A stretch of 61,735 nt of DNA, counting the filler, from Stramenopiles sp. TOSAG23-6 (taxonomy: Eukaryota), in the NCBI GenBank assembly GCA_900128565.1. It is 17 parts of 17 records of this genome, joined end to end, with 100 filler letters (N's around TTAATTAATTAA, not from the genome) between each part and the next. Parts side by side here need not be neighbours in the genome. Positions count along the whole stretch, not along the records: positions 7,326 to 10,884 come from LT637456.1; 16 more parts are not named here. One strand, given 5' to 3'. The translations under genes were made by a program, and so were the position numbers. The notes under the pieces were generated by a model that was given only the letters and a program-made list of their open reading frames with translations, had not been told where the DNA came from and did no database searches. Shown in pieces: positions 3,664 through 61,669 of this stretch (position 1 is its first letter; each line of letters starts with the position of its first letter).

Positions 3664-3746
3664 GGAAAAATATTTGAAAAAAAAATCGTTAGGTACAAAA
3701 TTTCGTATGAAAAAAAAAATTAGAAATTTAAAAAAAATAAAACTTA

Positions 3747-5238
3747 CATTGCTCTTCCTTCCTGCGTTAAAGTCAAATGCTGAGGACCTTACAGAATCTG
3801 CCATATACTCTGATTTAGAAAGAAACATTGTGATGAGATCGCAGTATATATTTTGGAAAAATATTATTTTTAGTAAAAATTTGTTAGGTACAAAATTTGG
3901 TACAAAAAAAAAATCGAAATTCAATTTTGAAAATTTTGGAAAAATATTATTTTTAGTAAAAATTTGTTAGGTACAAAATTTTCATAGTAAAAAAAATCGA
4001 AATTCAATTTTGAAAACGTACATCTAGACTCTCCAAATATATTTGATCCCATACCCCACAGACTTAATGCAGCACGATGTTCTAATGCTTCTCTCCATAA
4101 CTTTCTTACTGTACCTAGTTTGACTTTCGCTTTCGGATTTCCGTTTCCAAAGCACATCAATCCAGCCATTTGAATTTTACAAATTCCTTGAAAAAAACGA
4201 TCACCCAATTTATTCGCTTTCTGTGTAGCTTTCATATGTATTTTGGAAAAATATTTCAAAAAAAAAAACTAAAATTTGTTAGGTACAANNNNNNNNNNNN
4301 NNNNNNNNNNNNNNNNNNNNNNNNNNNNNNNNNNNNNNNNNNNNNNNNNNNNNNNNNNNNNNNNNNNNNNNNNNNNNNNNNNNNNNNNNNNNNNNNNNNN
4401 NNNNNNNNNNNNNNNNNNNNNNNNNNNNNNNNNNNNNNNNNNNNNNNNNNNNNNNNNNNNNNNNNNNNNNNNNNNNNNNNNNNNNNNNNNNNNNNNNNNN
4501 NNNNNNNNNNNNNNNNNNNNNNNNNNNNNNNNNNNNNNNNTACAAAATTTCGTATGAAAAAAATATTAAATTAGAAATTCATATAAACATACATAGATAA
4601 GACCTAGATGGATATTGGCTCCCTAATTTGGATAGATCTTGACGCCATAGTTTTCGAGTAGCCTTCAAACCAACTACAGCTACTGCATATTTAAGATCAT
4701 TTAGATCCATTCCTGCAAATGTTTTCGGATCTTCTATCATTTCATTATTCCAATTATCAGATTGTTCTTGATTATTCAAGTATACAGATAAACCCTCAAA
4801 CACTTGACGCATATCATTGCTTGTTTTTAAAACGTCCGTTAGGTTATTGCAATAGTATATCTTCACACTAGCTGCGGCAGCGTGAATAATACATTCATGC
4901 GGATTTAGCTCTTGTAGGGTAGAACCTTTCTTAGTCGCCATAATTTCAGCAGTGTCGTAAACACGTGGAATTACCATAAGAAGGTCACTTTGTAAAGCCA
5001 ATCGCTGATCACTTTTGCCTACCGCATCAAGATATAAAGCACAAGCACGGACCATACTATCGTCAGAAGCCAAGTCATCGACATAGCCCATGCGCATATA
5101 GTCAGGAAACTTTGACAAAAGACTGGTTGCTTTCTCTAAATTCTGGTATAAGGTGGTAAACAACTTTTCCGTAGGCCCAATATCAGACTTGGAGAGCGTT
5201 GCTAGTAGCTTCTCCGCATTACTTATCGACATTTTCAC
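3747..5238 (-). CDS. Multi-exon hypothetical protein (partial, interrupted by an N gap)
   Basis: ORF 4579-5238 plus exons at about 4022-4234 and 3747-3845, separated by family introns (TACAT|MKATQ; AGA T|GTACG...TATAT|AC). No family recognised. Confidence 0.5.
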
Positions 5239-5619: not shown

Positions 5620-7164
5620 ATGGAGAGCACGTCTTTGTTACCAAATAAGCGACCAAAGGAAGAAAGTCCTTCAGGGGTGCCTGAAATGCTCAGACGTGTT
5701 TCTGTCCATCGACTCCGTACCCAGCCGAGTGCACCGGAACACCAACACTCTAGAGAAGCTCGGCATCGTTCTAGAATCGTGCCACTTTCACCATCGACTC
5801 CATCTTCCGCAACTATCGACTTTCAAAAATGGAGTGTTAATGCAACAAAGGCAAAGATTATGGTATTACCAGCTGAAGTTCGTTTCAACCTTCGTTGTAT
5901 TGTCTTTGAGATGGACGAGTTAGCACTTGACCAATCAGCGTACTTTTCAGAAGAGATAAAGTGGCAGCAACGCCGCGATCTTGTAGTAGAATTACTATCA
6001 TCTGCATTAAATGATCACGATATGGAGCTCGATGCTGCTGTAAGTCGTGTTGTAGCACCAGTGTCATCAAGACGGTGGAAAGTATTCCGACAACGAACTC
6101 TTGATTCAAAGGTCTATAAGGCGTTTTTACAAATTGTGAGTGTACTATATTGTTTGTTATCATTTTATGAGGAGCCTTATTCTGGGAAATGGAGTCATAC
6201 AGAGATGAAGAATGCAGCTTGGACAGAATATACAGAGTATTTCATTCTTTGTATCTTTTTATTTCATGTACGTTTTCATCATTAGGGTTACTAGGGTTTA
6301 AAAAAAAAACATTTTGTAGTACATTTTGTACCTAACAAAAAATTAAATTTTCGAAATATTTTTTCACTGTACAGATCTTACTTGCCAAATCATACCAATA
6401 TAGTAAATGGGGAATTCTATTTTTGGTTTTATGGCTATTGTACGTGAGCGATGTGATCATGTATACAGTACATTCTTTAGGTTTGACTACATTTGATAAG
6501 AAACATGTACGTTTTCAAAATTGAATGTAAAATTTGTTTTATACGAAAATGTATACCTAACAAAAAAAAATTTCAAAAAAAAAAATATTTTTTCGCAATG
6601 TATATTTTTTCTTGGTGTAGATTATCAAGACCATTGCGCCCATTGTCTGTAGCGGCTTTATCACATACATATCGTAATTTATCTGGTTCTCTATTCCAAG
6701 TTTTACCTCATATAATGCCTGCAAATGTCATGATATGGATCATTATGCTTGCTTATGTACGTTTTCATTTTAATTTCAATTTTTTTTTTTTTGAAAATTT
6801 TGTACCTAACAATTTTTAGGTTTTTTTTTGAATATTTTTATATAATTCATGCTGTTTGGGGATTTCAAGCATTTTCTGATGATTTGACGTCGCAGTTATA
6901 TCAACTTGGAGGACCTGGTTTAGAAAATTTTAATACTGTGAGTCAATCATTTCTTGCAACATTTGTATTAATGAGTGAAGAGAACTATCCATATGTCATG
7001 TATCCAGCACAAATGGTAAAACCTGTCCATGCAGTATTTTATTTCACTTCATTTATAATATTGATGTTATTTCTAATGATACCATTATTATTAGCTATGA
7101 CATACTCTCAATATAAGAAGAATATGAAAAAACAGTATAAAGCAGAAATCATTCGTAAACACAT
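5620..7164 (+). CDS. Two-pore calcium channel (TPC family), 5' part, 4 exons
   Basis: LLSFYEEP, RLSRPLRPL (S4) and FLATFVLMSEENYPYVMYPA (pore) motifs. Introns 6268-6374 (GT-AG), 6507-6603 (GT-AT) and 6757-6850 (GT-AT) join the exons in frame. Confidence 0.8.
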
Positions 7165-7773
7165 GTATGATTTATTTTTTTTTTTAACAAAAAAATCGAA
7201 TTTATTTTTCGTACGAAATTTTGTANNNNNNNNNNNNNNNNNNNNNNNNNNNNNNNNNNNNNNNNNNNNTTAATTAATTAANNNNNNNNNNNNNNNNNNN
7301 NNNNNNNNNNNNNNNNNNNNNNNNNCTTTGATTACTTATAATAACACTTGTATTATATTTAAATACTCCTTACGTTTCTTTTAGATTAAGTCTCCACAAA
7401 ACGAATCTAATAGTTGTTGCGATTTTGGATTTGATTGTGAAGAACGGCACAGCAGCACTCTCTTCGGCAATAATACACAAAAAATCTCCATTCAAAGATC
7501 CGTTAGCCATTTTACGTACAAAATTTTGGTAGAGATTGATCATGGAGGTCGACAGTTTCAAGAGACAGGATCGACAACTTTTTGTTCACGTATATACGCA
7601 AACCTGCTTAGAAATCAAATCGAAAAAAAAAAAATAAAATATTATGTTTTTTGCAACACTCTTCCTTAATTTTTTAGCTACTATTAATTAGTGTCTTGCA
7701 TTACGATGTCATAGCAAGGTTTTCCCATTCACGGTAATTGCACAGCAACTGATTCTTTCGAGTCTTACTATTC

Positions 7774-8726
7774 ATGGAAATGTTATCTTCAGCGCAAGAT
7801 AATGGTGGGGTAGAGCCTCATTTAAAGTCTCATTCTGAAAAGTATGAGATATTTATTAGTAATCCAGACTTTAAATTCAATGCAGCGCACTTTATAGCTT
7901 ACAAAGGATATCGAGAACGTCTACATGGCCACAATTATCGTGTATCTGTTCGAGTTAAAGGGCGACTTGGTTCAGATGGATATGTTGTTGACTTTGGGGA
8001 TATTAAAAAGTCAACGAGACGAATCTGTAAAAGTTTAAACGAGGTATTTATTTGTCCTACTTTAAGTGATTGTTTGAATATAACTCATGTGAATAGTGTA
8101 GACGGTAAAGCTGGAAATATTGATATAGAATGTGAAGATGGTGCGCGATTTAGTTTCCCATTTGGTGATTGTGCCATGCTACCTATTGCCCATACTTCAT
8201 GCGAAGAGCTAGCGAAATATGTGTGTTTTCAGGATCAATTTTAAATTTATTTATTTTTCGTACGAAATTTTGTACCTAACAAAAAAAACAAAAAAAAAGA
8301 AAATATTTTCCCAAAATACATGTGTGTAATGTCATACTTGAAGATATGAAAATTTCCGAGTTACAATCCCGTGGAGTTTCTTCTTTCGAAGTCGGTGTCG
8401 CAGAGCGTAAGAATCAAATGGCACTATACGCTGTTGATATATTACCAAAAGTGTCTCAAAATAATTTGGTTCCACCTAATCTCAAAATGTCTGATTTGAA
8501 TCTGTCTGATAGAGAATCCAATCTCAAAATGTCTGTTTTGAATCAAGTTAGTCCTGGAATGATTACTACTATTTGTGATGAAAGTGATGATAAAAATATT
8601 GATGATGATAAAAATATTGATGATGATAAAAATATTGATGATGATAAAAATATTTATGATGATAAAAATATTGTTGTAAGCGATGGTAATGAATCAAACG
8701 ATACAAGTAGTAGCAGTGAAATATAG
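7774..8726 (+). CDS. 6-pyruvoyl-tetrahydropterin synthase (PTPS/QueD family), 2 exons
   Basis: FNAAHF, ERLHGHNY, GYVVDFGDIK and SCEELAKY motifs. Intron 8221-8321 (GT...CAT) joins ELAKY-VCNVIL. The tail has DDDKNI repeats. Confidence 0.85.
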
Positions 8727-8935
8727 TTCAGACTTATTTTATTCCTATGTCAAGTAGTAAAACGATTTAAAAATAAGTTTCATTTATTGTTTTGATGCAT
8801 CTTTAGCATATCTCAGGATTTTAATTTTTTTTTTATAGTAAATTTTGTACCTAAACAAATTTTTGATTTTTTTTTATCTCAGGATTTCAGGTAAAAATAA
8901 ATTGTTAGTTACATAATTTGGAACATGAAAAACAT

Positions 8936-10625
8936 CTATACCCATTCTTTTGGTTTACCTTGAAGTAAATCCAATGTTTTTTTTTCTGGACTATCCAACT
9001 CAGGAATATTTTTATACTCATAACGGACAGTAAGTGGAAGTGACATTAATACTGCTTCAATATCAACACCAGGTACATGTATTTTGAAAAAATATTTCAA
9101 AAAAAAATTTGAAAAAATTGTTAGGTACAAAATTTCGTACGAAAAAAAANAAAAAAATTCGNAANTNAAAAAAAAATAAAACATACAGCATATCCAAATT
9201 TCGTACCTCGATCATATACCAAGTTAAATTCAACATACCGACCATGCCTTAATGCTTGCCATTCTTTTTCTTTAGTAGTGTATGGCATATTCATTCGTTT
9301 TAATAAAATAGGCCAATAACAAGGAACAAAAGCTTTTACACAATCTTGTACAAACGATAAAGATGATGATTGTAGAGTTTGTTCATTTGGTGTAAGTAGT
9401 GTGAAACGATATTTTAAATTCGAAATTCGTTAGGTACAAAATTTCGTACGAAAAAAAAATAAATTTGAAATTCATGATGGAAACGTACAATTCTACTAGA
9501 ATCATCTCGATGTGAAAGAAACGAAAGTGCACTATTTACTTTTTCATTATTTGTATTATTATTTACTTTTTCATTATTTGTATTATTATTTGTTGTAACT
9601 GTATTCGTTTGTGATTTATATTGGTGAATATTCGTGAAATCGTCAAAAAATATTCCTCCAATGCCTCTCGCTTCTGCTCTTGCTTTGTTATAAAAATGTA
9701 TTTTGGAAAAATATTTCAAAAAAAATTCAAAAAAAATTGTTAGGTACAAAATTTTGTAAGAAAAAAAAAAAAAATTAAAACATACATATGTATCACAATC
9801 AGTTTTCATTATTGAGTATCGACTTTTAGTACTATTGTCATTTTTATCATGTTTATCACAGACATTTTTTAACGTTTTATGAAAATGTTTTGCATCGTCT
9901 TCAAATAAATAAATCGGAGTTAAATCAGTTCCTCCTCCAAACCACCAAGAAACAACTTCATCATCATCATCTGTTATTTCAAAATATCTATAATTAAAAT
10001 GTACAGTGGGTGCCATTGGATTGACTGGATGTAATATCCCACTTAACCCACACACCCACATTTGTAAATTAGGGTCACTTTCATGGCTAGGTTGTGTATT
10101 ACAAGTTTGCTCTTTCTTTTCTACCTTTTTATCCATTTTTCGCTTTTGAAGTTTTTCGCGCAACTGAGGATGATTTGCAGACATTTGTCGAATAATTGCT
10201 GGTGTAAGTGAGCGTGTCATGACTGTGAGACCAACTCCAGCTTTTTCAAAAACTCGACCATCTTGTAAAACTGCAGTTAACTTGAGAGCTCGTTTAGACG
10301 ATTTATCACGGCGCCATGTTACAATTTTCGTATCATCTGGAGCAGCAATAGACGCAGCTTTATCTTCTAATGAAGCAACACGATTGCATATATCGTGCTG
10401 TACCTGTACTAGTGTATTAATCATGGCTCTACGTGTGCTATTATTTCGAGATAAGTCGTTGCCTCCAAGAAAGTCTGACAATGTTGACGTATCGTCAGGG
10501 AGTGCAGGCGCACTACAACTACAATTGTCTGAATATTGACTTGTTGCATATATAGAGACGCCAGCAATAGCTGACGATGCAAATAACATACATCTTGAAG
10601 TCATCGCTGGTGTATTGTGTTTCAC
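8936..10625 (-). CDS. CPOX: Oxygen-dependent coproporphyrinogen III oxidase, 4 exons
   Basis: [61 protein letters not shown] and LMSLP motifs. Introns at 9696-9785, 9394-9488 and 9077-9186. Confidence 0.93.
9696..9785 (-). other. Representative family intron, GTATG...TACAT (GT-AT), 90 nt
   Basis: Removing exactly these 30 codons (VCF...KIH) restores the conserved HemF motif CDTY-FYNKAR.EARGIGG. No AG gives this junction. Confidence 0.8.
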
Positions 10626-11021
10626 TTTTTGGTGGTTGTAGAATAGTAGATATCGAAAGTTATATCATATAATATGTTTCTTTTGGCTAAGAGCGAAGCG
10701 TCCAGAAGTACTAGGGACTTTCCACTAGAGATTTTTTTTTTCTTTGTAGCCCTAACCCTAGGCTTGTCGTTTTGTGGTACCCGGTTCCATCGGTTCGCTC
10801 GCAATATTTGAATTTGCAAAAAGGTGAACAGTGAGCAGTGAGCGAAATAGTGAACATTGAGCGAAAAATGGATAAAAAGGTAGANNNNNNNNNNNNNNNN
10901 NNNNNNNNNNNNNNNNNNNNNNNNNNNNTTAATTAATTAANNNNNNNNNNNNNNNNNNNNNNNNNNNNNNNNNNNNNNNNNNNNAAAAAAAAGATGTTTG
11001 TTTTTCCTTTTGCATTTATCT

Positions 11022-13507
11022 TTAATCTTTTTGCTTCAAATTTCTTTCCTTTTCATAGTTTTTACTTAGCTCAATAATCATCTGGCGAGGACAAGGTTTG
11101 TGCTCTGTATAAACCATAGAAAATTCTCCTTTACCAACAGTTGCCGTGCGAAGATCCGTAGAATATCCAAACATAGCATTAAGAGGAACTTCACAGGTTA
11201 TATTAGTATAGTTCATGTCAGTTACAGTATCTTTGATGTAGCCTTTGCGTCTGTTGAGACCACTGATTGTATTACCTTGATATTCTTCAGGAACAACCAC
11301 ATCAACATCCATAACAGGTTCTAGAACAGTTGGTCCAGCTTGAGGGAAGTATTTACGAAATGCACCTTGAGCACATAGTCTAAAGGCCATCTCACTGGAG
11401 TCAACGGAGTGAGCATCACCATCAGTGATCACAAATCGAATACCTTCTACTGGATGTCCAATTTGTGTCCCTTTCTCCATAGCTTGTTGAAAACCTTTTT
11501 CGACTGCAGAAATGTATTCTGGTGGAATTGCATTACCTAAAATATTATTTTCAAATTCAAATGTAATGCCTTTTGATTTTAATTCATCTTCCAAAGGCTC
11601 CATATAACCAATAATTCGACCATACTGTCCTGACCCTCCAGTTTGTTTCTTGTGGAGGTAATTAAACTCTACCCTTTGAGTAATTGCCTCTCGATAATTT
11701 ACTCGAGGTTTACCCACTTTTACATCAACACCATATTCTCGAGACAAACGTTCGATATATATTTGTAAGTGTAACTCACCCATTCCAGAAATAATATTTT
11801 CTTTAGTTTCTTTATCTACATGACGACGGAAAGTTGGATCTTCCTTACAAAACCGTGAGATTGCTTTACCAAATTTAGTGCCATCTTTATTATTTGGCGT
11901 TACTGCTAAAGACATCACCGGATCTGGCACAAACATCGATTCCATCGAATATCTATTGAGTAGAAAATATTAGTAAATATTATCAAAAATAAGTTTTTGT
12001 AGATAATTATGAAATAGTATCAAAAAAAGGTTTGAAAGTCATCTGATAATAATAATAATAATGATGATAATAAAAGTTTTGTCCTTATTCGGTAATTCCA
12101 AAAACTGAATCTACATGGAAAGCGAAGCTCGCCAATGAGGGGTCTAATCCTCTTTCAGACTGGTGCCAGTATGTTTGTAGTCATCGGACAATTTACATTA
12201 TAAAAAACAGATAAAAAACACTTAAAAAAATATTACTTACTTAACATCACCAGACGTAAATGTATCCCCAGATGCACAATCAACACCAAACATTGCAAGA
12301 ATTTCTCCTGCTTTAGCACTTTCAATATCTTCCATTTCATCACTGTGCATTCGAACAATACGAGGCACCTTGATCTTACCACCGCCAGCATCAGGATTCA
12401 TATTATGAAACCATTGGCCGCGTTCAAGTGTGCCTTGATATACTCTCATATATGTCAGCTGACCAAATTGTCCTTCTTCCAATTTGAATGCAAGAGCAAC
12501 CAATGGTGCTTTCGGATCATTAGATAGAGTAATTTCCTTTTCATCATCTTTTAAATCAAGAGCAATATTTTTCACTTCTGGAGGTGATGGTAAATAATCA
12601 ATGACGGAATCCAATACATTCTGAACACCACGATTTTTGAACGCTGAGCCCATCAAAACAGGAACAAACTTCAGATTGATAGTACACCGTCGTATTGCGG
12701 ATTTCAGAACGTCATCTGGAATTTCTTCTTCCATTAAAAACAGTTCTTCAACTTCTTCATCAACTTCAGCAATTGCTTCAATTAAATCCTGTCGCTTCTG
12801 AGCTGCTTCTTCGGAAAGTTCCGAGGGAATCTCAGATACATCAATGACTTCACCATTGTCTCCAAGATTACGAACTGCTTTCATCGTCACAAGGTCAACA
12901 ACGCCTTCGAGTCCCTTTTCTTCTCCAATTGGAATCTGAATAGCACACGCATTTAGAGCAAGTTTTTCACGAAGATCAGTAATAACTTTCCATGGGTCAG
13001 CTCCTTCTCTATCCAACTTATTAATGAAAGCGATACGAGGCACGTCGTAGCGCTTCATCTGGCGATCAACAGTAATTGATTGACTTTGCACACCTGCTAC
13101 ACCACACAATACAAGCACAGCTCCATCCAGCACACGAAGTGCACGCTCCACTTCGACTGTAAAATCAACGTGGCCTGGAGTATCAATAATGTTCATATGT
13201 GACTCTTTCCATTGACAAAAAGTAGCAGCAGATTGAATTGTAATACCTTTTTCTCTTTCTAAATCCATGGAATCCATTTTTGCTCCGACACCATCTTTTC
13301 CCCTGACTTCATGAATTGCATCCAGTTTTCCAGCGTAAAAGAGAATTCGTTCAGTCAAAGTTGTTTGTGTGCCGAAATACCAAAGTTACGGTACCTATTG
13401 ATTGCGTCATCACTGCCAGCAGAGGATGCAAAAGTACGGGACAACAAATTCGATTTTATAGGAGCTGCCCATGCCTTGCGTGTAGCCTGGACAATGAACC
13501 GATTCAT
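11022..13507 (-). CDS. GFM1: Mitochondrial elongation factor G, 2 exons, with a frameshift in the G1 box as assembled
   Basis: [27 protein letters not shown] and [12 protein letters not shown] motifs, and a transit-like N-terminus. Canonical GTAAGT...TAG intron at about 11953-12240. Confidence 0.92.
12079..12191 (-). ncRNA. Candidate intronic box C/D snoRNA guiding the 18S rRNA helix-18 region
   Basis: GC-richer island in the EF-G intron, sense to the host, bounded by a TTGTCC/GGACAA stem. It contains CTGGCACCAG-T-CTGA and TGGAATTACCG, both antisense to the universal 18S segment CTGGTGCCAG...CGGTAATTCCA. Boxes C and D are degenerate. Confidence 0.6.
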
Positions 13508-18331: not shown

Positions 18332-18512
18332 ATGTTCAGAAAATCCATTAATACCCCACATCTTTAAAAGTCCAGCAACAAGGCCTTGTGAAACACCACT
18401 AGAATGAAGTGAAGTAGCTTGTGAATATTTTGTAAAAAATATATTTTTTTTTTTTCCGTAAAATGTTTTTTTTGTTAGGTACAAAATTTCGTACGAAAAA
18501 AAAAAAAAAAAC

Positions 18513-18543
<31 letters not shown>

Positions 18544-18794
18544 AAATGACTCAATGATCAAACACAAACGTACATGGCACAGACCAAGAAGCTAATCGAC
18601 CATCTGGTGATGTTGTTGAAGTACCTTCGCCTAAATGTTTTTCTGCTAATCGTAGAAACATATCCCTACGTTGACGGTAAAAATGCGTAATATTGACAAC
18701 ATGTATTTTTGTATAATATTTTTAAAAATATTTCAAATTTTTGTTAGGTACAAAATTTCGTATGAAAACTAAATAAATTTAAAATTTTCGAAAA

Positions 18795-18825
<31 letters not shown>

Positions 18826-20133
18826 CCTTAAAAGTTTTTTTTTTTTGGGTAAAAAATTTCGTACGAAAAAAAAAAAATAACAAAAAAATAAAAACATCGT
18901 ACATGTAATTGTAAACGGTCAATTAACTGTGATGGTCCAGTTGCCCAACCCACACGAATTCCTGAACTTAATACTTTTGAAAATGAATCAAATCGGATAA
19001 CTCTTTGATCGATATCCATTGAATAAAATGATTTCATGTTTCGTGTTTCATTAGGGTTAGGGTTTTCATTACTAGGGTTAGGGTTAAATTGTAGATAAAA
19101 ATATGGATCATCTTCTAAAATAATCAAATTTTCACGTCTTGCTATTTCATATATTTTCTCTCTACGTTGACTGGATAGAGTAGCTCCAGTTGGATTTGAA
19201 CCATTTGGTATTGTATATATATTTTGGAAAAATATTTCAAAAATTAAAAAAAAAAAATTTGTTAGGTACAAAATTTCGTATAAAAAAAATATTTTGGAAA
19301 AAAAAAATTGAAAAAAAAATAAAACATACATAAAACACGAGGTTTTCGTTTTGAAGGGTATAATACATTCCAATTTTTTAAAACCTCATCAAGAATATCA
19401 GGTTGGAGACCGTTCTGTTTGTTAGCTATTATATATATATAGATTTTCATACTTGAGAAAAAAAAAAAATTTAGTTGTAAAAAAAAATTTAAAAAAAAAT
19501 TAAAAAAAAATTTTGAAATTTTTTTGAAATATTGGAAAGGAAACGTACTTCATCTGTATCAATACCAATTTGATTGATACCATATGGTGTAAGAAAAGCA
19601 AGTGATCCAGAATATGTTGGTGTTTCAAGGAGTAAAGAATCCCCAGGATTAAGAAGCATTTCGAAAGATTTTGTCAGAACATCTTGAGACCCTGTTCCTA
19701 CTAAAATACTCGAATTCTTGGAATGTTCTGATGGATGATACGTAGACTGGATGATCTCAAGTTGTTCAATGAGAGAAGGTAAACCGAGGGTTGGACTATA
19801 TTGCAAAACTTCTTCTAGTGTTTTTCCTTCTAAAGTAAAAGAAGAAGAAGATGTTTTGTTACTATTTGTCTTTGATGATTTTTTTACCATTGTTGTATGA
19901 ATTTCAATCTGGTCAAAAGGAAAAGTCTCGCTATTCGGCATTCCTCCACCTAAAGAAATCATACCAGGAATTTTTAATAGTGGTTGTAAAGCACGAATTG
20001 CACTTGGTTTACGCTGAAGAGAAGCCTTTGAAAAAAAATGTTCATAGTCATGGAGAGTTGTTGTTGAAGCATACATACAACGTATTGAACGATTGATCTC
20101 CATGCATTTTTGTCTTGAACGCAAAATCATCAA
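18332..20133 (-). CDS. AADAT: Kynurenine/alpha-aminoadipate aminotransferase (PLP class I), partial, last two exons in swapped order
   Basis: MISLGGGMPN, LQYSPTLG, YTIPNGSNPTG, ILEDDPY and DSFSKVLSSGIRVGW motifs. Introns 19415-19548 (GT-AG) and 19217-19329 (GT-AT). Confidence 0.88.
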
Positions 20134-20494: not shown

Positions 20495-21745
20495 ATGTAT
20501 TATCTGTTTAAAACGCCTGTACGTCGTATGGGTATAGCGTGTCTTGGTGCTGCTACTGCCGGAATCGGGTTTCATAGTTATTCAACAATGGAACGTCGAG
20601 AAGAAAAAAAGATAACACAGGAAGAACTTGAACAAAACGATGGCAGTGAAGGCATGCCGCTGTGGATTTCTTACAAAAATTCTGTGTATGATGCAACAGA
20701 CTTTATCGATATTCATCCTGGTGGTCGAGAGAATCTAATGATGGCTGCTGGTGGTGCTATTGACTCCTTTTGGGACTACTATTCAGCTCATCGAGGAAGT
20801 GGTAAAGGTGTCAAAGCGTTGAATGCCCTTCCACGTGTCGGAACTTTAGTTATAGAACCAACTGATACATCTGTCGATGAATTAGAATTGGATCCATGGG
20901 AGAATGAACCCTCTAGATCTACTACATCAACACTTCAGCCTCTTAACGGTGATACGGGAAATAATTTGACTGGTCCTTTTGAAGCTGAGTCTTGGCCGAT
21001 CCCATTTACATTTAAAACTCCAAATTCTTCGTTTTATGTTCGAAATCATGCTCCAGTACCAGAATCAATAGATCTAAAACACGCAGGATTATCTATCGGT
21101 ATTGATTCAAGTATTTTTAAAAGAAAAAATACAAAAAATACAAAAAATACAAAAAATACAAATTTGGAGTCCAAAGAAATATCAAAATATTTTTTACTGA
21201 AAGATTTGGTCAAAAATACTTCAAATTATGAAACAATTACGTTGGACGTCACCATCCAATGTACAGGTAATCGTCTTCAAGAAGCTGAATCGGCTCTTAA
21301 AACAGCTGATATGGATTTAAAATGGGATGGAAAAGGTGTAGCACCAAAAAGTGGTGGATTGATCAGTAATGCTTCTTGTTTGTTTTATTTTGTTTTATTT
21401 TGTTTTATTTTTTTTTATTTTTTTTTTTTGAAATATTTTTTTTTGAAATATTTTTTTTTGAAATATTTTTTTTTGAAATATTTTTTTCGTACGAAATTTT
21501 GTACCTAACGTTTTTTTTTTCATAATTTCATGTTTTATTTTTCACAATACATGGACTGGAATCAGACTAACAGACTTACTTTTTCAAGCAGGTTTGAACG
21601 ATGCAGACATTGACACAGAAAATATTGATAAATACTGTGTCACAATGTATGGGGCAGATGGATTTTCGAATGCAATGCCTTTAGCTCATGTCATTAATAA
21701 AAAAAATGATGTACTGGTTGCATGGAAAATGAATGGAACACTTAT
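20495..21745 (+). CDS. SUOX: Sulfite oxidase (cytochrome b5 plus molybdopterin domain), 5' part
   Basis: VYDATDFIDIHPGG, FYVRNHAPVP, TIQCTGNR and AWKMNG motifs. Intron 21378-21552 (GT-AT) restores ISNASWTG. Confidence 0.85.
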
Positions 21746-29328: not shown

Positions 29329-32270
29329 ATTGGTCGACCTACTCTACGAAGTTTTATAGAAGAAGGCATCAATGGTAGGATTGATGCTACATCTAAAACA
29401 TCGCCACATTCACTTAATATTGACATACCCTGTTCTATATTTTTATTCTTCTGAAAACAATAATGAATCAATGAAAGCCATAAATGTATTTTGTAAAAAT
29501 ATTTCAAAAAAAAAATCGTTAGGTACAAAATTTCGTATGAAAAAAGAAACGAATTTGAAAAAAAATAAAACATTCATGTTTACTCATTTGTGAATCATCC
29601 ACAACATTTTTAATGACTTCTTTTGCTTCATGGATAAGATTATTTTGTAACGCTACATCCATTGCGTCATTATATAAATGCAACATGGTATAAATATATA
29701 TACAACATCTTGTAAGGTGTAAACGTTGACATGTATTGTGAAAAAATAAAAAAAACAAGAATGTTTTTCTTAGGTACGAAATTGTGTACGAAAAAAAACA
29801 ATTTGAAAATCATAATGTAAACGTACATATCCGTAACGCGCTATTTAGATTAAGTATAACACCAATATCATCATCTTTTCGTTCCGCTAAAAACCTCAAA
29901 ACTTCAGTTTCAGATTGAGTTTTAGCTAAAAGACGGAAAAAGTAGTTAAATACAAAACTATCACGACACGAAATCTTTCTGAAATATTTGCGATGTTTGT
30001 TTTGTACTACATCTAAATGTTTTGTACAAGATTTCGTACTTGAAGATTTATTCTTTACATTTGATTTTTCTATTGTATCATTAAGTTTATGATTCGTTTT
30101 CATTCTCTGTGATATATTTGATGGTCGTGACGTAATTGGAGCACTTAAAACATTTGTACCTGTAACATATTCCAAATACTTAAGTACAGAAATTGTACCA
30201 TTATTATTACTATTATCATTCGTTTTCACTTCATATTGAACTAATGATGGCATTAACTGACGAGGGATTAAAAAGTCACACGTACCAGAAATCCATACTT
30301 GAATCGTTTCTTTAGGTATGTGTTTCATGAATTCAAACGAAAATTCGTAATGTAAAGCTGATGCTTCATGTTGTGGAATTTTTTGTAAGATACGTAATGC
30401 AGTCAGAAATTGTTTCTGTTGAGAATGAATGTAAAGAACACGTTGCCACAAACCTGTTTCTTGTGCAAAATATGTTAATTCATTTATCTGCCCAAAATTA
30501 CTCAGAGCAGCTAAAGTGGTTCGAGAGTCTAAATCACATTTATATTGAAGTAAAAAATCCCTCAAAATGTTTACGTAGGACTGTAAACATTTTTGTGATT
30601 TTGTAATTCTGTCTGTCAGATATTTTCTGTGTTTTTCACTTTTTCGATACTTTTGATGTTTTAATTGTTTTTGAGGTATGGAGCCAATGACACATTTTGC
30701 TATATGCACTTTATAAATAAGCAAATGACACATCCATGTTAAAATAACTGTTTTTTGGCTCCTCATGTATTGTGAAATTTTTTTTTTTGTAAAATTTGTT
30801 AGGTACGAAATTTCGTACGAAAAAAAAATAAATTTGAAATTGAAAAAAAAAAAACATACATGTTTCGGTGAATATTCTTTGAAAGTATTAGACGTAGATA
30901 TTCAAGTAGTGATTCAATTGGGGAAGTAACCATGTCTAATTTAATATCAGTGTTTGTACCCAAATCTGTTGCAATTGGTAATATTGAAAAATATTTCAAA
31001 ATTACATCTTCAAATGAACACTTTGATATAAAATACTTTTTTGCAGCTTCGGAATAGTTTTTGTGACGAAACAATGCATTCGCATACTGTATATTCACAA
31101 TATTTCGTTGTTTGTCGTTTTCACAATAAAATAATGATTTTTTGAAACCAACAAAATTTATTTTATTCGGGTTGTTTTCGTTACTGAGTGATTTACATTG
31201 TTGTATTGCATTTTGCAAGTAATCAGACCAAAGATTTCTATCTTCTCCAGTTATAGAAATTAACCAAATATTATGACTAGATATAATCCATTTCTCATTA
31301 GATACGAAATCATGAATGAGAAAACTGTTCATCTTATTTGACAATCCTGTCAAATTGTTTGAGACAAGATTTCGTGTCTTATCCCAAGACCATTTTTTTT
31401 CTAGAGGAAAGATTTTCTGGTACAAGATAGATTTCGTTATTATACTAATTATACGAAAGCGCAAACTTACTATACAATTATCTTGTTTTTGTAGTCTTGT
31501 GTCATTTTCATATTTCGTGTTATTTTCATATTTCATGTTATTTTCACTTATATCGATAATATCTGTACAATACACATGATATTGTGATACACTTATATCA
31601 TGAGAAAATTTCATTGAATCTTTATCAACTATATTCATTTTGATAAATCCTGGATCGTTTATAATTGATTGACTCTTCGTTACTACCGAGGTCGATGACG
31701 TCATCAAACCATCTGTTGATTTTGTTTTTCTTTTTTTATCTAATGAACTGTTACAAAAAACACAACCATTACCAGTTAAAATACCAAACCCATCAGAAAC
31801 ACCACCATCTGGTGAAGCTATGGATAGTGTTGGTTTCTCCATTCGAATACCTGCTGGAATATCCGCCCAGAAAATATCTCCAATATTCTGAGTTGTAGCA
31901 TCTCGCTTGTATTCATTCATTACATTTATATTATTTAGTAGGTCCTGCTCAATATTATCATTATTATCCTCCTCAATATTATCATTATTATCCTCCTCAA
32001 TATTATCATTATTATCATTCCTCTTGAATTCATCAAAATTATTTTTGTAATATTTAAATAATATCTCAAAATTTGGACCTCCAAAAAATTCATAGACACG
32101 AATTATTTTCTGTTTTGCGTTTCTGCCTGTAGCTAATATAAACCAAGTCGTAGTTTCCATTATTTGGTCAGAATCTGTACGACAAAAAGAAGCATTTGTT
32201 TCAGATTTGTTTTCCGAATTTGATAAACTTTGTTCTTGTGTGGAAACTGACGTCCATTTACTTTTAAGAT
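29329..32270 (-). CDS. VPS18: VPS18/PEP3-like HOPS/CORVET subunit, multi-exon fragment
   Basis: EDRNLW..YL, FEDVILKY, LIPRQLMPSL, ALRIC..CIYIY..LYNDAMDVAL, LWLSLI and ILPLMP motifs. Introns at 29731-29826, 29484-29575 and about 30765-30859. Confidence 0.75.
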
Positions 32271-32347
32271 TAGATTTCAGAAAAAAATCGTTAGGTACAA
32301 AATTTCGTACGAAAAAAAATCGAATTTGAAAAAAAAATAAAACATAC

Positions 32348-35900: not shown

Positions 35901-36324
35901 TTATTGATTTCCCCACTTGGCAAAAAGAAATATCCTGGTTGACACTTTCCTGGAAGACAATAAGATCCTTTACCGGGGTCATCGAAACATTTTTGTGCAT
36001 CATTTTGGCAACCTACAACTTCATCACATTTGCTACAAGAATGTACTGTGAAAATATATTTTTGTAAAAAAAAACGTTAGGTACAAATTTGAGTACGAAA
36101 AAAATATAAATTTGAAATGAATTGTGAAAATGTACATAGTCTGTGGATCCAGTTCCATCACATGTACCGTATCTCCTCTCATTGTTTGCACAAGATGGAT
36201 GGCATTTTCTACATTGACCATTATGAAGATAAAAACCTTCATTACATTGTTCAACACAATGAATATTAGTTGCAACAGAACACCGAATATTTTCTTCTTT
36301 ACAATTCTTCAACGACATATATGC
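32930..36324 (-). CDS. Large cysteine-rich (furin-like/TNFR-like CxxC repeat) surface or secreted protein, fragment
   Basis: More than 1000 aa of CxxC..GYY..C repeats, with family introns at both ends. Confidence 0.75.
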
Positions 36325-52657: not shown

Positions 52658-54404
52658 ATGAACTCGACTGTACAGACACAATCGAAAATACGTGACTCCA
52701 ATTGCGCCTTTTCGCACGTTGATTTTAATGTTATTGCAAATCTAGGTTTCGGCGAAACAATTCGGGTATGTGGACATGTTCCTGCGTTAGGTTGTTGGGT
52801 ACCAAATGATGGTGTCCCCCTTGTGACAACTCCCGAAAGCCATCCAATGTGGTACACAGCTCGCCCGGTGGCTCTCTCCCGTGGTGAAGTTGTAAAATAT
52901 AGGTACGCATTATTTGTAGCTGGTGAATTTGATCGATGGGAAGATTCCGAAAACTCAAGAGTTCGTGAATTGCGTCTCACAGAAGATATGCAAGTTTGGT
53001 GTGTTCAAGACCGTGTTGATATTAAGAATCGAGCTCGAGTGAATATTCCTGAATCTGCTCTGCATCAACAATTACTAAAGAAAAGACTGTCACCCAGCAC
53101 AAAGTCATTCTTATCACCGCTTATACAACAGCAACGTAAAGCAATAGAAACATCTCAGTCTTCTGTCACTGCACCTGGTGAACCAGCTGAACATCAGTCT
53201 GTACATTCAAACCTTTCAAATACTTCGCTAATGAACCCTAACCCTAATAAGCTCACATTGCCTACATCGATTAATTCTGAAACTGATAGTTCTGTGTATT
53301 CTGGCCCAGTGATTGATGGAGAAAGACTACAACGTTCAAGTATATATTCGACATCTAATCCACTTCAAGCACCACCATCGTTCAGCACAGCAACCGGATT
53401 ACACAGAAATGTAGCAAATAGTGATGAAGATATTAGTATTGGTCGAAATGATGGCATTTTAATTATTGTTCTTTATCTACCAGTACACATTGTTCGTGAA
53501 CCGGGTACTAAAGAGTGGAGCGTAACTTGGGATGGGAACAGCTTACTTGCAAGAAAAAAAACAACAATTGCAGACAAATTGAGATTTCTTTGGATTGGAA
53601 TGCCAAAACTTCCTCCTGATACAAAGTACACACATCGTGAACGAATGGAAATTACAGTGGCGTTAAGTAAACTTCGTTGTATTCCTGTGTTTGCAAAACT
53701 GTCCACCAGAAAACTTCATGAAGAATATTGCCGTAACACTTTACATGTATGTCAAATGTTTTTTTCATTTTCCATGGATTGATTTTTCATACGAAATTTT
53801 GTACCTAACGATTTTTTTTGAATGTAATTTTTTTTTGGTTTTTTTTTTGGTTTTTTTTTGTTTTTTTTTGTTTTTTTTTTAGTTTTCGTACGAAATTTTG
53901 TACCTAACAATGTTTTTTTATGATTTCATGTTTTTTCACAATATATGATTTATTTCATAATGTCATTGATGTATACGCTAAATTACCAACTCGCTGGTGT
54001 CGCAGAAAAGATCAAAATAATGACTGGCAAGGATACACTGCGTTAAATCAAATTTTTGCCAACAAAATATCTGAAACGTATGATGAAGGTGATTTTATAT
54101 GGATACAGGATATTCACTTTTTGGTGTTACCTTCTTTTGTTGCTCGTAAACTTCCAAAATCGAATATCGGTTTATATTTATGTACGTTTTCATTTCAATT
54201 TCAAAATTTTTTTTTTATAGTAAATTTTGTACCTAACGAATTTAAGTTTTTTTTTTGAAATATTTTTTCATAATCCAGATTCGCCGTTTCCATCATCAGA
54301 AATATTTCGAACTCTTTCAGTAAGGGATAAACTTTTACGTGGTATGCTCAACGCGGATCATTTGGGATTTCCTTTATTTGAATACACAAGGCATTTCTTA
54401 GCTT
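52658..54404 (+). CDS. CBM20-fused trehalose-6-phosphate synthase (GT20), 5' part
   Basis: FGETIRVCGHVPALGCW (CBM20), WIQDIHFLVLPSF and SPFPSSEIFR..LLRGMLNADHLGF motifs. Introns 53747-53946 (GT-AT) and 54182-54278 (GT-AG). Confidence 0.88.
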
Positions 54405-54627: not shown

Positions 54628-55587
54628 AAAAAAAAAAAAAAAACACAAAAAAAAAAATATGTTTCACAATATATGAATTACTATTTCACTTGATTGAAGA
54701 GAGATGGATAAAGAAAAAAAAATCATATTGGTGGTCATATCTTAATACCTTACCACTACCTCATCAGCAGCAAAATCCTTTATATTTCAATAAAGACGAA
54801 ATTCGTGGATTGAAAGGATCGACGATGGAAATCGATGTAATTGAGTATCAAAATTCTGTTTCGACAATGTTTACCTTTATCAAAAAACGTGTTTTTGATA
54901 AATTTCCTGAAAATTTTCCTGCAAAATATTTCAACTTGGATACGTATAAATGGGCGACAGCAATACTCAATAGTCAAAGTGTATGTTGTTTTTTTTTCGT
55001 ACGAAATTTTGTACCTAACAAAATATTTTTTTTTTTTTTTTTGGATAAATTTTTCTTAGGTTTAGGTACAAAATTTTTTTACCAAAAAAAAAAAAAAAAA
55101 AAAAAAATTTTTTTTTTTTTTTTTTTTTTTTGGTAAAAAAATTTTGTACCTAAACCTAAGAAAAATTTATCCAAAAAAAAAAAAAAAAATATTTTGTTAG
55201 GTACAAAATTTCGTACGAAAAAAAAACAACATACACTTTGACTATTGAGTATTGCTGTCGCCCATTTATACGTATCCAAGTTGAAATATTTTGCAGGAAA
55301 ATTTTCAGGAAATTTATCAAAAACACGTTTTTTGATAAAGGTAAACATTGTCGAAACAGAATTTTGATACTCAATTACATCGATTTCCATCGTCGATCCT
55401 TTCAATCCACGAATTTCGTCTTTATTGAAATATAAAGGATTTTGCTGCTGATGAGGTAGTGGTAAGGTATTAAGATATGACCACCAATATGATTTTTTTT
55501 TCTTTATCCATCTCTCTTCAATCAAGTGAAATAGTAATTCATATATTGTGAAACATATTTTTTTTTTTGTGTTTTTTTTTTTTTTTT
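54628..55587. repeat. Perfect 960-bp palindrome duplicating a SET-protein exon (likely amplification/assembly fold-back)
   Basis: ORFs 54690-55136 (+) and 55079-55525 (-) are identical; the centre is a polyA/polyT run at about 55107. Confidence 0.9.
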
Positions 55588-55903
55588 ACAAAGATTCAAA
55601 AAAAATCGTTAGGTACAACATTTACTATGAAAAAAAAAAATTGAAAAAAAATTAAAAACATTTAAAAAAATAAGGGTTAGGGTTAGGGTTGATGAAAAAG
55701 GAACATACATGATGAGAATCACCTTGTGGAAATTCAACTCTCAATTTTTTCAAAGCTGGTGCAATTAAATTACTGTTTTGAAGTGCTGAAAATGACGTCA
55801 TATACATTCTTTGAGGAAGAACTAAATAATTTTTACCTATACTGATATTTGATGTACTAATCACCGAAATTAAAAGTCCGCCTTTTTGAACTGCCGTTTT
55901 TAC
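55233..55903 (-). CDS. SET-domain (Rubisco-LSMT/SETD3-like) methyltransferase exons
   Basis: LVLPQRMYMT, GDSHH-ELLFHLIEER, SYWWSYLNTLP, PLYF..EI..LKGS and YKWA..ILNS motifs. Confidence 0.72.
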
Positions 55904-56033
55904 ATGTATTGTGAAAAAAACACGAATTTTACAAAAAAAAAAAATCGTTAGGTACAAAATTTCGTACGAAAAAAAAAAATTCGATTTTTTTTTTTTTTCG
56001 GTAAAAAAAAAAAAAAAAATAAATAAACCATAC

Positions 56034-57096
56034 AGCTCCTTCAACGCCCTCAATCGAATCAACCACATTTTTTATATTTTTTATATTTTGTATATTTTTA
56101 TGATTTTGATAATTTTCTGAACACTCATCATTATAATGGATTTCGTGATAATTATTCAAAGTATGTGTTTGAATTGTATCAAAACAGGTTTGTTCAAATG
56201 AAGATTTTATACATGTTGAAAAATCTGTATTAAAATTTGTTAAATGATTATTCATTCCGTTGGGAGAACACGAAAAACGTGGATATATACTAGCTAAACT
56301 TGGCATTGATAAAAATTTCTGAAATGTTGCACGTAATAAAATGGTACGAATTTTGATACCTACATATAATGTGAAAAAAAAAAAAAAAATTTACATTTTA
56401 CATTTTTTGTTAGGTACAAAATTTCGTACGAAAAATAAAAATAAATTTGAAATTGACAAAAAAAACAAAAAAAACAAAAAATACCCGAGCTGACATAAAT
56501 TCTTGATGAGACTGAGCAATGGAAGCAATGAGTTGGGTAAATAAAAGAGCTAGAGAGCATTGCCATCCTGTTGATATAGTTCGATGTTGACAACCATTCA
56601 CTTCTTGACAATATTCATCTCCGCCAGCAAGAATCCATTCTACTAAATTTTTGATGAGAAATGGCGACAAGAAATGACAAGAGATGCTAATTACGTATAA
56701 AAACGCTGCTACAATAAGTTCGCTAGCAAACATTCGAAAAAAGATCGATATAAGTCTAGGTTGTTTTGTTTGATATTGGTTATTTCGGTTATGTATGTGT
56801 ATGTTTGGTTCATTTTGTTCATTTGATTCATCTCCCTCTTGTGTAGGGTTGTTTGTGTGTATAGTTTGAATGAAGAATGATGAACTCTCTGTGTTTTTTT
56901 CATCATTAATTGTTTGAAATTCTCTTGTTAATTCTTGATTAAATCTATAATGTAAATGTTGTACTTTATCTGATTCTGGGATATTATATATGTCTGAAAA
57001 ATCAAGGGGTCTTGAAAAAGCAGCATTTGTTAATGAAGACGTCCATAAGAAGAAAAGTTTATCGAAAAAAGAGGAATGTTCAAAACCTTGTGACAT
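56034..57096 (-). CDS. ABCC/MRP-type ABC transporter, N-terminal exons
   Basis: SFFDKLFFLW, PLDFSDIYNIPESD and LSPFLIKNLV motifs. Intron 56364-56484 (GT-AT) gives SAR-VGIKIRTIL...FQKFL. Confidence 0.8.
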
Positions 57097-60861: not shown

Positions 60862-61153
60862 CCCCATAAAAAAAAAAAAAAAAAAAAAAAATATATATTT
60901 CTTCACTATACATTTATCACCTATTTACATGTGTCGTAAATGCATACCATTAACTATACCTATCTGTGCTGATACTGAATATATACAACAACCAAAAAAA
61001 TATAAACATGAAAATTTTGTATATCTAGAAAATAGGCAATGTATAAAAATGACAAAATGTACTATAAAAGAATTTATTTATTTTTCAGGTGAATTTGGAA
61101 AAAAAAATCGAATTTGTCAAACACTTCGTATTTGTACATCAGATGTACGTTAT

Positions 61154-61190
<37 letters not shown>

Positions 61191-61669
61191 CTTACAAAAT
61201 TTTTTCCCAAAAAAAAAAAAAAAAAAAAAATGAAAAAAAAAAATATTTTTTCACAATATATAAAACATATACAAAACGATGTAATGAAATTAAAGGATCT
61301 TGCGATATTGGAAAAGATTGGCGAGTACAGAATGGTGATGGTAAAGATACACGAAATATTGAAATAGGTCTCCAACGCAAATGTACGTTTTTTTCTCTTT
61401 CATTTCGAATTTATTTTTTTTTCATACGAAAATTTGTACCTAACAAAAATTTAAAATTTTTTTGAAATATTTTTTCATAATACTTGTACAAAAAATGAAT
61501 ATATGTTCAATGATGCTTATTTTTATAATGCATATCATCACCCACCGTCTTACTTGTTTTATAACTATTATGAATCAAACCCTAACCCTTATAGGCATGT
61601 ACGTTTTTTACCATTTTTTTTTTTATACCAAATTTTGTACTTGAGATTTTTTTTGAATTTTTTTCACCA

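Follow-up and report, generated by a model that had tools for sequence, protein, structure and literature searches.

A family of introner-like introns with GT...AT ends in Stramenopiles sp. TOSAG23-6

The PTPS intron and its family

The window analysed here is a stretch of 61,735 nucleotides (nt) from the genome of Stramenopiles sp. TOSAG23-6. It consists of ~17 contigs of ~3.5 kb, arranged with the largest first and chained by N44-TTAATTAATTAA-N44 linkers (for example at 3564-3663, 7226-7325 and 10885-10984), and both the adjacency of the contigs and any open reading frame (ORF) that crosses a linker are artificial. The window DNA is AT-rich, with a G+C content of ~23-42% per 2 kb. Nuclear-type genes in the window encode PTPS, coproporphyrinogen oxidase (HemF), mitochondrial EF-G, Rpn10, a Na/Ca exchanger, CIA30 and a cohesin-loader-like protein. 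The PTPS gene is interrupted on the plus strand by a short intron with GT...AT ends that belongs to a multi-copy family, and this family is the subject of the present analysis. In the notation used below, a slash marks a junction between exon and intron. The features of the PTPS intron are as follows.

8219..8226, plus strand: left 8-nt direct repeat ATGTGTGT, composed of exon AT and intron GTGTGT
8221..8321, plus strand: PTPS family intron, placed by frame and homologue alignment
8256..8280, plus strand: conserved core TTTCGTACGAAATTTTGTACCTAAC, branch-site-like at its 3' end, with invariant columns in an 18-copy alignment
8310..8321, plus strand: conserved 3' terminal 12-mer CCCAAAATACAT (family consensus TTCAMAATACAT), from a position table of 19 introns
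8320..8327, plus strand: right 8-nt direct repeat ATGTGTGT, composed of intron AT and exon GTGTGT

The PTPS coding sequence is divided between two ORFs (7753-8244 and 8280-8726), whose frames require the length of the removed segment to be 2 mod 3. In the GT...AT register, the segment is 101 nt long. The intron slides through nine registers, from 8219-8319 to 8227-8327, all of which yield the same mRNA, and excision in any of them joins ...EELAKY to VCNVILEDM.... Residues 15-149 of exon 1 align to residues 13-141 of a solved PTPS structure (PDB chain 1y13_A), and residues 2-35 of exon 2 align to residues 143-176 of the same chain in a match that is weak (E=0.76) but is the sole match obtained. 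The two exons thus abut exactly. The 8-nt direct repeat that the initial annotation had placed at 8219 and 8320 is present as ATGTGTGT at both sites. It reflects a family-wide consensus and is not locus-specific: the additional 6-nt match GTGTGT beyond AT is not general in the family, and the PTPS repeat is an extreme case of a likeness between joined exons and joined intron ends.

The PTPS intron shares the core TTTCGTACGAAATTTTGTACCTAAC with three introns of the HemF gene. With a 21-nt core and up to three mismatches, 36 matches were found in the window, compared with none in 100 shuffles. Full copies align end to end, and the core columns are invariant across 18 copies aligned with MAFFT. 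The core resembles the budding-yeast branch heptamer plus one extra C. The family consensus is WYAT/GTAYGTTTT ... TTTCGTACGAAATTTTGTACCTAAC ... TTCAMAATACAT/RW with a T-rich body, in which the length of the poly-T tract varies across all copies. In the 3' 12-mer, T is found at -5 in 19/19 introns, A at -9 in 18/19 and C at -10 in 17/19.

Intron boundaries were first set by motifs alone and were then tested against the flanking open frames. Eighteen of the 21 motif-set boundaries are frame-consistent, compared with approximately one-third by chance. A scan for motif pairs added four introns and brought the number of complete, frame-consistent copies to 23, with lengths of 90-202 nt (median 103 nt). 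Eight more copies are interrupted by contig ends or by a fold-back. Several of the ~3.5-kb contigs stop inside a copy, which suggests that the repeat breaks the assembly. The density in the window sample is approximately one copy per 2 kb of gene space.

The genes that contain copies include those for PTPS, HemF, Rpn10, a cytochrome-b5-domain protein and a CBM20 protein, along with others whose products have no Pfam match. In 32 of the 36 matches, the core and the longer ORF nearby (stop to stop, within ~250 nt) share a strand, as judged by a crude test in which some of the windows cross contig joins. The remaining four cores are accounted for by a mirror pair in the fold-back, one locus matched on both strands and a window across a contig join. 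By the same longest-nearby-ORF test, no antisense copy within a gene was seen among the 36 core matches. The 23 introns are distributed over phases 0, 1 and 2 as 15/7/1. Phase 2 is much rarer than the AT, ATR and YATR sites available in the coding sequence would predict (P=0.016, 0.006 and 7e-4, respectively), which indicates some selection or recognition beyond the bare target.

The 5' terminal letters of the 23 introns are GT in 22 and GA in one, and the 3' terminal letters are AT in 19, AG in two and TT in two. Introners are expected to have canonical GT/GC...AG ends, from which the family departs. Four junctions were checked against homologues, namely PTPS, HemF 9696-9785, HemF 9077-9186 and Rpn10 24296-24385. 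The Rpn10 junction matches P0241 (68% identical) residue for residue. Its sequence, AC/GTACG...ATACAT/TC, allows no sliding, and the intron is therefore GT-AT without ambiguity. The third HemF intron, 9394-9488, is located in a low-complexity insert absent from homologues, so that only the reading frame places its 3' boundary, and a second in-frame candidate, ...CCAAAT/, which lies 9 nt beyond it, is just as possible. The letters that the initial annotation had matched at this intron, exon ATT and intron end TACTT, are present (ATT/GTACG ... CTACTT/ACACC), but the match depends on this frame-based boundary. The window thus contains a multi-copy, sense-oriented intron family whose removed segment is GT...AT at four homologue-checked junctions and, by frame, in the set of 23.

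Canonical GT-AG alternatives were rejected. No in-frame AG lies upstream of the 3' end in any of the 23 introns, 12 of which also lack another in-frame AG within 45 nt, and the downstream candidates would remove conserved residues. An AT-AC reading (register -2) was also rejected as a general rule. It needs AT at both ends, as found in 15/23 introns, and is impossible for the Rpn10 copy and for the copies at 9077, 55904, 56364 and 21378. An ordinary GT-AG intron coexists in the host genome, in the EF-G gene (11953-12240).

The closest HemF relative, P0121 (52% identical), has one uninterrupted ORF across all three HemF intron positions, which points to recent gain in HemF, the only gene compared. 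A 20-nt core gave no match in JGI metagenome contigs and none in IMG/VR. A single exact match of this core in a Bacteroidales metagenome-assembled genome (L001, 401-420) was set aside, given an estimate of ~1 chance match in 596 Gb.

The other complete, ambiguous and partial copies, together with the GT...AG comparator, are listed below.

9696..9785, minus strand: HemF family intron, AT/GT...AT/TT, 90 nt; by frame, and the junction DTY/FYNKAR matches homologues with no gap
9394..9488, minus strand: HemF family intron, TT/GT...TT/AC, 95 nt; by frame only, with an uncertain 3' boundary
9077..9186, minus strand: HemF family intron, CT/GT...AT/GT, 110 nt; by frame, with FGYA/VPGVDIE compared with FGFAVPGVDIE in P0121
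24296..24385, plus strand: Rpn10 family intron, AC/GT...AT/TC, 90 nt; by frame, with TDDQL-L-SQALAMSM compared with TDEQLLNQALAMSM in P0241
6268..6374, plus strand: family intron with an AG end, AT/GT...AG/AT; by frame
6507..6603, plus strand: diverged family intron, AT/GT...AT/AT; 3' end set by frame
6757..6850, plus strand: diverged family intron, AT/GT...AT/GC; by frame
53747..53946, plus strand: composite intron with two cores, 200 nt; looks nested in or tandem to another copy after ...GAAT
54182..54278, plus strand: family intron with an AG end, AT/GT...AG/AT; by frame
61383..61485, plus strand: family intron, AT/GT...TT/GT (...ACTT end); by frame
61145..61261, plus strand: diverged family intron, AT/GT...AT/AA; from the motif-pair scan
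21378..21552, plus strand: family intron with an internal fourfold tandem repeat, TT/GTTTGT...AT/GG; from the motif-pair scan
56364..56484, minus strand: family intron, GG/GT...AT/GT; by frame
55904..56033, minus strand: family intron, CT/GT...AT/GT; by frame
55541..55708, minus strand: family intron, AT/GT...AT/GA; by frame, with the 3' end within one arm of the fold-back 54628-55587
36041..36135, minus strand: family intron, AT/GT...AT/TC; by frame
30765..30859, minus strand: family intron, AT/GT...AT/GA; by frame, with in-frame AGs 3 and 6 nt downstream
29731..29826, minus strand: family intron, AT/GT...AT/GT; from the motif-pair scan
29484..29575, minus strand: family intron starting with GA, AT/GA...AT/TT; by frame, with GAATGT in place of GTATGT
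19217..19329, minus strand: family intron, AT/GT...AT/AT; by frame
18701..18902, minus strand: composite family intron with two cores, 202 nt, AT/GT...AT/GT; by frame
3846..4021, minus strand: family intron with an internal tandem duplication, 176 nt, AT/GT...AT/AC; from the motif-pair scan
18425..18573, minus strand: family intron with a clear 5' end, AT/GTACG; the frame is kept if the motif-set 3' end is moved back by 2 nt (...AAT/) or on by 1 nt (...ATT/)
32256..32347, minus strand: family intron with ambiguous boundaries, off frame as TG/GTATG...AAAT/; a GTAAAT donor further upstream or an error of 1 nt in the sequence would restore the frame
19433..19548, minus strand: intron with a family-type 5' end (AA/GTACGTTTCC) and no core; in-frame 3' ends ...ATAT/ (19433 or 19439), with a nearby AATAG out of frame
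3664..3747, minus strand: 5' part, AT/GTAAG, interrupted by a contig end
21746..21849, plus strand: 5' part, AT/GTATG, interrupted by a contig end
21950..22031, minus strand: 5' part, CT/GTATC, interrupted by a contig end
29242..29328, minus strand: 5' part, AT/GTACG, interrupted by a contig end
36325..36414, minus strand: 3' part, ...CCAAAATACAT/GC, interrupted by a contig end
43589..43675, plus strand: 5' part, AT/GTATG, interrupted by a contig end
58236..58322, minus strand: 5' part, AA/GTATG, interrupted by a contig end
11953..12240, minus strand: comparator GT...AG intron of mitochondrial EF-G, outside the family, GTAAGT ... CAATAG, 288 nt; the junction GDVK/YSMESMF fits P0067 and P0004

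The enlarged copies (21378-21552 and 53747-53946 on the plus strand, 3846-4021 and 18701-18902 on the minus strand) contain an internal tandem duplication or two cores; an example of the former is a run of four repeats of a 15-nt GAAATATTTTTTTTT unit. The window is gene-dense, and a few degenerate core fragments that lack recognizable splice ends are located between convergent genes at 8811-8890 and 27784-27936 (both on the plus strand, with cores at 8836 and 27830) and at ~57396, where the core is on the plus strand among short ORFs of both strands. Short telomere-like CCCTAA/TTAGGG runs are found at 6290-6310 and ~61585-61598 on the plus strand and at 10745-10765 and ~55650-55675 on the minus strand, within or beside family introns and in one intergenic stretch.

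A perfect 480-nt fold-back at 54628-55587 (arms 54628-55107 and 55108-55587, no spacer) occupies the start of a contig and mirrors one intron copy (cores 54999 and 55196). Its most likely origin is a chimera formed during amplification or assembly.

Among named sequences, the EF-G and Rpn10 exons have their best relatives in oomycetes, brown algae and other stramenopiles. The host genes look stramenopile and MAST-3-like (MAST, marine stramenopile), and we take the host to be a marine stramenopile of this type. Protein searches with the HemF and Rpn10 exons returned homologues only and no near-identical protein. A database coding sequence (CDS), P0067, whose label begins GSMAST32, represents the same EF-G gene, but three internal segments that the window keeps open are missing from it. 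The EF-G gene (11022-13385, minus strand) has a broken frame in the GTP-binding G1 region (13355-13390, minus strand), where ...GISAH is followed by out-of-frame ...TTLTERIL and a few codons seem to be missing. PTPS has a C-terminal extension (8560-8680, plus strand) with tandem 18-nt repeats that encode low-complexity sequence of the DDKNI type, and HemF has a similar Asn/Thr-rich insert at 9489-9600.

Repeats at the junctions and pairing of the ends

The dinucleotide AT stands on both sides of the intron. As the initial annotation had described, most upstream exons end in AT (17/23), as do most introns. The exon frequency compares with 9.4% AT dinucleotides in the coding sequence of the window (binomial P=2e-13), and AT is also found at 23 of the 34 readable 5' ends when partial or ambiguous copies are included. 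The exon flanks of 19 introns have a preferred composition, with Y at -3 (15/19), W at -4 (18/19), R at +1 (15/19) and W at +2 (15/19). Because the copies are located at WYAT/RW sites, AT precedes the element and AT ends it, which makes a direct repeat. Moreover, AT is self-complementary and the element starts with GTA and ends with TAC, so that the inverted repeat ATGTA...TACAT consists partly of the same letters as the direct repeat.

One explanation of the repeat derives the acceptor from a target-site duplication (TSD). The element proper would be GTAYG...ATAC, a transposase would make a 2-bp staggered cut at AT in WYATRW, and the duplicated AT would serve as the 3' splice site. Both flanks fit a palindrome around AT, in line with the enrichment of AT at exon ends, and the composite copy 53747-53946 looks like a copy inserted after ...GAAT of another copy. 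Families that bring a 5' splice site of their own and take the 3' one from a TSD are described in PMC9860276 and PMC11282704. However, the match between the two sides is not specific to the locus. The initial annotation had proposed to test whether the exon-end dinucleotide predicts the intron-end dinucleotide. In the window, the two agree in 15/23 introns, compared with 14.2 by random re-pairing (P=0.35). By the refutation rule given in that annotation, the locus-specific prediction fails, in a small sample in which nearly all sites are AT. No correlation between exon and intron was found at position -3, where the 11 pairs with AT on both sides (19 introns) agree in only four cases. In the first 19 introns, the left-repeat length and the total-repeat length are no greater than in re-paired controls (P=0.62 and P=0.21, respectively). 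All five exon ends other than AT and the TT/TT pair (AC, GG, CT, CT and TT) face the intron end AT, the second ...ACTT end (61383-61485) faces exon AT, and the only non-AT match (TT with TT, 9394-9488) has an unverified boundary. The largest introner survey leaves a TSD call 'ambiguous' when the match is seen only across introns, since a match of this kind does not distinguish a TSD from a preferred site that was never duplicated, and its rule grades the present pattern in this way (PMC9860276). A 2-bp TSD at a palindromic WYAT/RW site is plausible, and the derivation of the acceptor from it is a tentative proposal that we hold somewhat below even odds. On the evidence of the window, the terminal AT may be a copied target or may belong to the element as its last two bases.

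The downstream exon also has a preferred start. Exon 2 begins with GT in 7/23 cases, compared with 6.8% expected after AT (P=6e-4), and with G in 12/23 (a test computed with 11 gave P=0.03). The GT excess means that joined exons tend to look like joined intron ends. This likeness would be expected if the family had spread through RNA, by reverse splicing, reverse transcription and recombination instead of DNA transposition, with AT/G(T) as a 'proto-splice site' instead of a duplicated target. The lack of antisense copies in genes agrees with such a route, and the departure of the phases from site availability would be easier to obtain via selection or recognition at the transcript level. The sense bias follows equally from selection against unspliceable antisense insertions, however, and the palindromic target fits a DNA enzyme. 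The introner survey favours an RNA route just for ascomycete families (PMC9860276). Spread through RNA is a rather unlikely alternative.

The ends of the intron are also related as an inverted repeat. The near reverse complementarity reported by the initial annotation, ATGTATGTTTT against AAAATACAT, holds for the subfamily with the CCAAAATACAT 3' end, in which it extends over ~10 nt with one bulge. Elsewhere it shrinks to ATGTA and TACAT (5 nt, two of them exonic), and a strict in-register Watson-Crick run of at least 5 is found in 5/23 copies. Measured by the 6 nt or more expected of terminal inverted repeats in MITEs (non-autonomous DNA transposons), the call for the family is ambiguous. Duplex energies were calculated for the 5' junction, taken from exon -4 to intron +12, against the 3' junction, taken from intron -14 to exon +4. 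The mean energy is -4.8 kcal/mol (-4.83) for true pairs and -4.2 kcal/mol (-4.17 +/- 0.28; P=0.012) for re-paired ends, compared with -2.5 kcal/mol for shuffled 3' ends and -2.0 kcal/mol for an internal segment. The ends are thus complementary at the consensus level, with a small locus- or subfamily-specific excess.

End-to-end pairing of this kind had been put forward in the initial annotation as a way to bring the splice sites together. In such structure-guided non-conventional splicing, the pairing of the 5' and 3' ends would both join and define the cut sites, as proposed for euglenid introns and Amoebophrya introners. The duplex energies agree with this mechanism, as does the minimum-energy fold, which pairs the two junction regions in 7/8 folded introns (in the AUGUA/UACAU register in five). 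The remaining evidence is against it. The folding energy of whole introns is no better than that of shuffles (z -1.6 to +1.2), the Rpn10 intron, a homologue-verified copy, reaches just -1.0 kcal/mol and forms no terminal helix, and the T/C difference at intron +4 has no compensating change at -6. RNAalifold found no consensus pair, a weak negative given that the MAFFT alignment misplaces some of the 5' ends. The excess of true pairs over re-paired ends can be explained by subfamilies that inherit both ends together, and the 5' end is an ordinary GTAYGT donor. End pairing may help splicing but is unlikely to define the splice sites, and structure-guided splicing is improbable as the mechanism of removal. 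Excision of the tRNA (bulge-helix-bulge) or RNase-III type, which was prompted by the 2-nt 3' overhang that the terminal helix would leave, was rejected, given that there is no bulge-helix-bulge geometry and that the helix is absent in some verified copies.

Proposed removal and spread of the introns

The explanation that we favour, with a probability of roughly 70%, is that 8221-8321 is one copy of a recently multiplied introner-type family and is spliced as a non-canonical GT-AT intron. Each copy would supply its own 5' splice site GTAYGTTTT, the core TTTCGTACGAAATTTTGTACCTAAC and the 3' 12-mer TTCAMAATACAT. The copies would be removed from RNA, and the spliceosome involved would tolerate 3' ends without AG (AT and, at lower frequency, TT or AG). 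Placement of the 3' end would depend on the conserved 12-mer, or on a branch site in the 12-mer (A at -9) or in the core. AG scanning would not be used, since the PTPS copy skips an unused AG within its 3' part. The family probably spread by transposition or insertion into WYAT/RW (AT) sites. The initial annotation had left a choice between an introner-type origin with a TSD and end pairing. The link to introners is strongly supported by many near-identical, short, sense-oriented introns in unrelated genes; both causes proposed for the repeats are candidates. Direct repeats, inverted repeats and non-canonical ends have precedents among transposon-derived introns (PMC7789003; PMC11282704; 10.1101/2020.10.12.336362).

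Removal by a minor (U12-type) or other second spliceosome would account for the AT end in another way, with the 3' site set by its distance from a branch motif near the 3' end and with a loose last dinucleotide. GT-AT is a recognized non-canonical U12-type pair that this machinery can splice (PMC1557818). Within the family, the last dinucleotide varies (AT, AG or TT), while the 12-mer with its near-invariant A at -9 stays at a fixed distance. The quoted U12-type signals are [G/A]TATCCTT at the 5' end and a TTCCTT[G/A]AC branch motif within ~45 nt of the 3' end (10.1101/2020.10.12.336362). The family donor GTAYGTTT lacks the former consensus. No motif of the TTCCTT[G/A]AC type was found either; the 3' 12-mer is unlike it, and the nearest sequence is ACCTAAC of the core, 33-67 nt from the 3' end. 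Phase 0 is dominant, whereas U12-type introns are biased away from phase 0, and the window contains no small nuclear RNA gene (0 Rfam matches). Judged by the sequence of its donor and branch motif and by its phase, the family is not U12-type, and a second spliceosome is an unlikely agent of its removal.

Three seawater RNA runs with small word shares were mapped on 9168-10884. For one seawater RNA sample, 868 and 835 contigs from two runs matched, and nearly all of them fell on the two intron cores, which places the family in hundreds of sequence contexts outside the assembly. The many skips in RNA contigs join different intron copies. In two total-RNA runs, the summed depth on the cores 9400-9457 and 9690-9747 exceeds that on the exons by a factor of thousands, since the core is present in hundreds of different contigs. 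Core depth in a poly(A) run is close to nil, but exon cover in this run is likewise negligible.

That the segments are artefacts of assembly or amplification, or are removed at the DNA level, is scarcely credible: the assembly does carry amplification artefacts such as the 480-nt fold-back and no spliced RNA was seen in the three runs, but the copies differ from one another, always keep the frame on removal, lie in sense orientation in conserved genes and recur in hundreds of contigs of independent seawater libraries, and we know of no programmed DNA elimination in this lineage.

Several observations weigh against an introner-type family spliced as GT-AT introns. The three RNA runs contain no spliced junction on 9168-10884, where the exon cover is thin, and no contig joins exons across either intron. 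A 197-nt contig (X2 record 9) continues with no splice from the exon into intron 9077-9186, for which DNA carry-over is a possible source. One copy (29484-29575) starts with GA, which could mean that the copy is dead, that the sequence is in error or that the donor is tolerated. Three motif-defined copies were off frame at the first-guess boundary, and two of these remain ambiguous. A 3' AT is a poor substrate for the known major spliceosomes. GT-AT introns elsewhere are rare exceptions (PMC1557818). Mobility is suggested by the similarity of the copies and by their absence from one 52%-identical orthologue; neither an empty allele nor an autonomous element was seen in the 62-kb window. The sample is limited to these 62 kb of a fragmented, amplification-derived assembly.

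If the introns are spliced as proposed, public gene models for the group, which are built on canonical splice rules, would be systematically wrong. Gene prediction restricted to canonical sites cannot model GT-AT introns, and the proteomes of uncultured protists may be distorted accordingly; the P0067 CDS already differs from the window ORF by missing internal pieces. Bursts of intron gain are at present best explained by introners, and the few lineages with non-canonical introners (Fritillaria, Amoebophrya, Physarum and the euglenozoans) are test cases for the adaptation of the spliceosome to invaders. The present family would add a stramenopile case with a simple code, in which a standard GT donor is combined with an AT acceptor that follows a fixed 12-mer. 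This uniform code makes the recognition of an AG-less acceptor directly testable and bears on how new introns arise and come to be recognized. We regard it as an evenly balanced possibility that a free-living marine stramenopile has been colonized by an AT-acceptor introner and reads GT-AT routinely via TTCAMAATACAT beside GT-AG, as an independent, previously undescribed tolerance of the spliceosome.

Comparison with known systems

In the literature searched, no account of such introns was found for MAST or other stramenopile genomes, and the supplements of PMC9860276 and PMC12130899 could list the family. Survey pipelines discard families with mostly non-canonical sites unless they are supported by transcripts.

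The window family resembles the introners of Micromonas, Aureococcus, Chrysochromulina and others (PMC11282704; PMC9860276). In both cases, many near-identical short introns with one or both splice signals of their own are found in unrelated genes, at species-specific positions, with short repeats over the junctions and with an mRNA length that is unchanged on removal. The families described have GT/GC...AG ends, whereas 19/23 introns of the window family end in AT. Its candidate TSD differs as well, being 2 nt long and invariant, and its inverted termini are mostly 5 nt.

The MITE-derived introns (MITE, miniature inverted-repeat transposable element) of Fritillaria borealis (Henriet et al. 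2019, via PMC11282704) share with the window family inverted repeats and junction repeats, AT among the 3' ends and the coexistence of GT-AG introns. Fritillaria introns mostly start with AG (AG-AC and AG-AT) after exonic TAC, whereas the window family has GTAYGT after YAT. Moreover, Fritillaria is an animal (a tunicate) and the window lineage is a protist.

The Amoebophrya introners (PMC7789003) are repeated copies with direct repeats at the boundaries and inverted repeats between the ends, and a hairpin was proposed to join the exons. They have inverted repeats of 8-20 nt, variable direct repeats of 3-5 nt and no preferred dinucleotides. The window family differs in its dominant GT-AT ends, invariant 2-nt repeat and weak pairing.

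In the U12-type introns of Physarum polycephalum (10.1101/2020.10.12.336362), a terminal inverted repeat is likewise combined with a 2-nt direct repeat, which is TA in Physarum and AT in the window family. The Physarum introns number in the thousands, a transposon origin was proposed for them, GT-AT ends occur, and a short motif is located near the 3' end. Physarum keeps the U12-type 5' consensus and avoids phase 0; the window family does neither.

The non-conventional and 'intermediate' introns of euglenids (PMC11282704) also have non-AG 3' ends, pairing between the ends and TSD-like junction repeats. In contrast to the window family, the euglenid pairing is at fixed internal positions (+4 to +6 with -8 to -6), and the euglenid introns, whose lengths differ widely, do not belong to a single sequence family. 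Within the literature searched, the window copies would extend introners to a new lineage, with a uniform GT-AT code.

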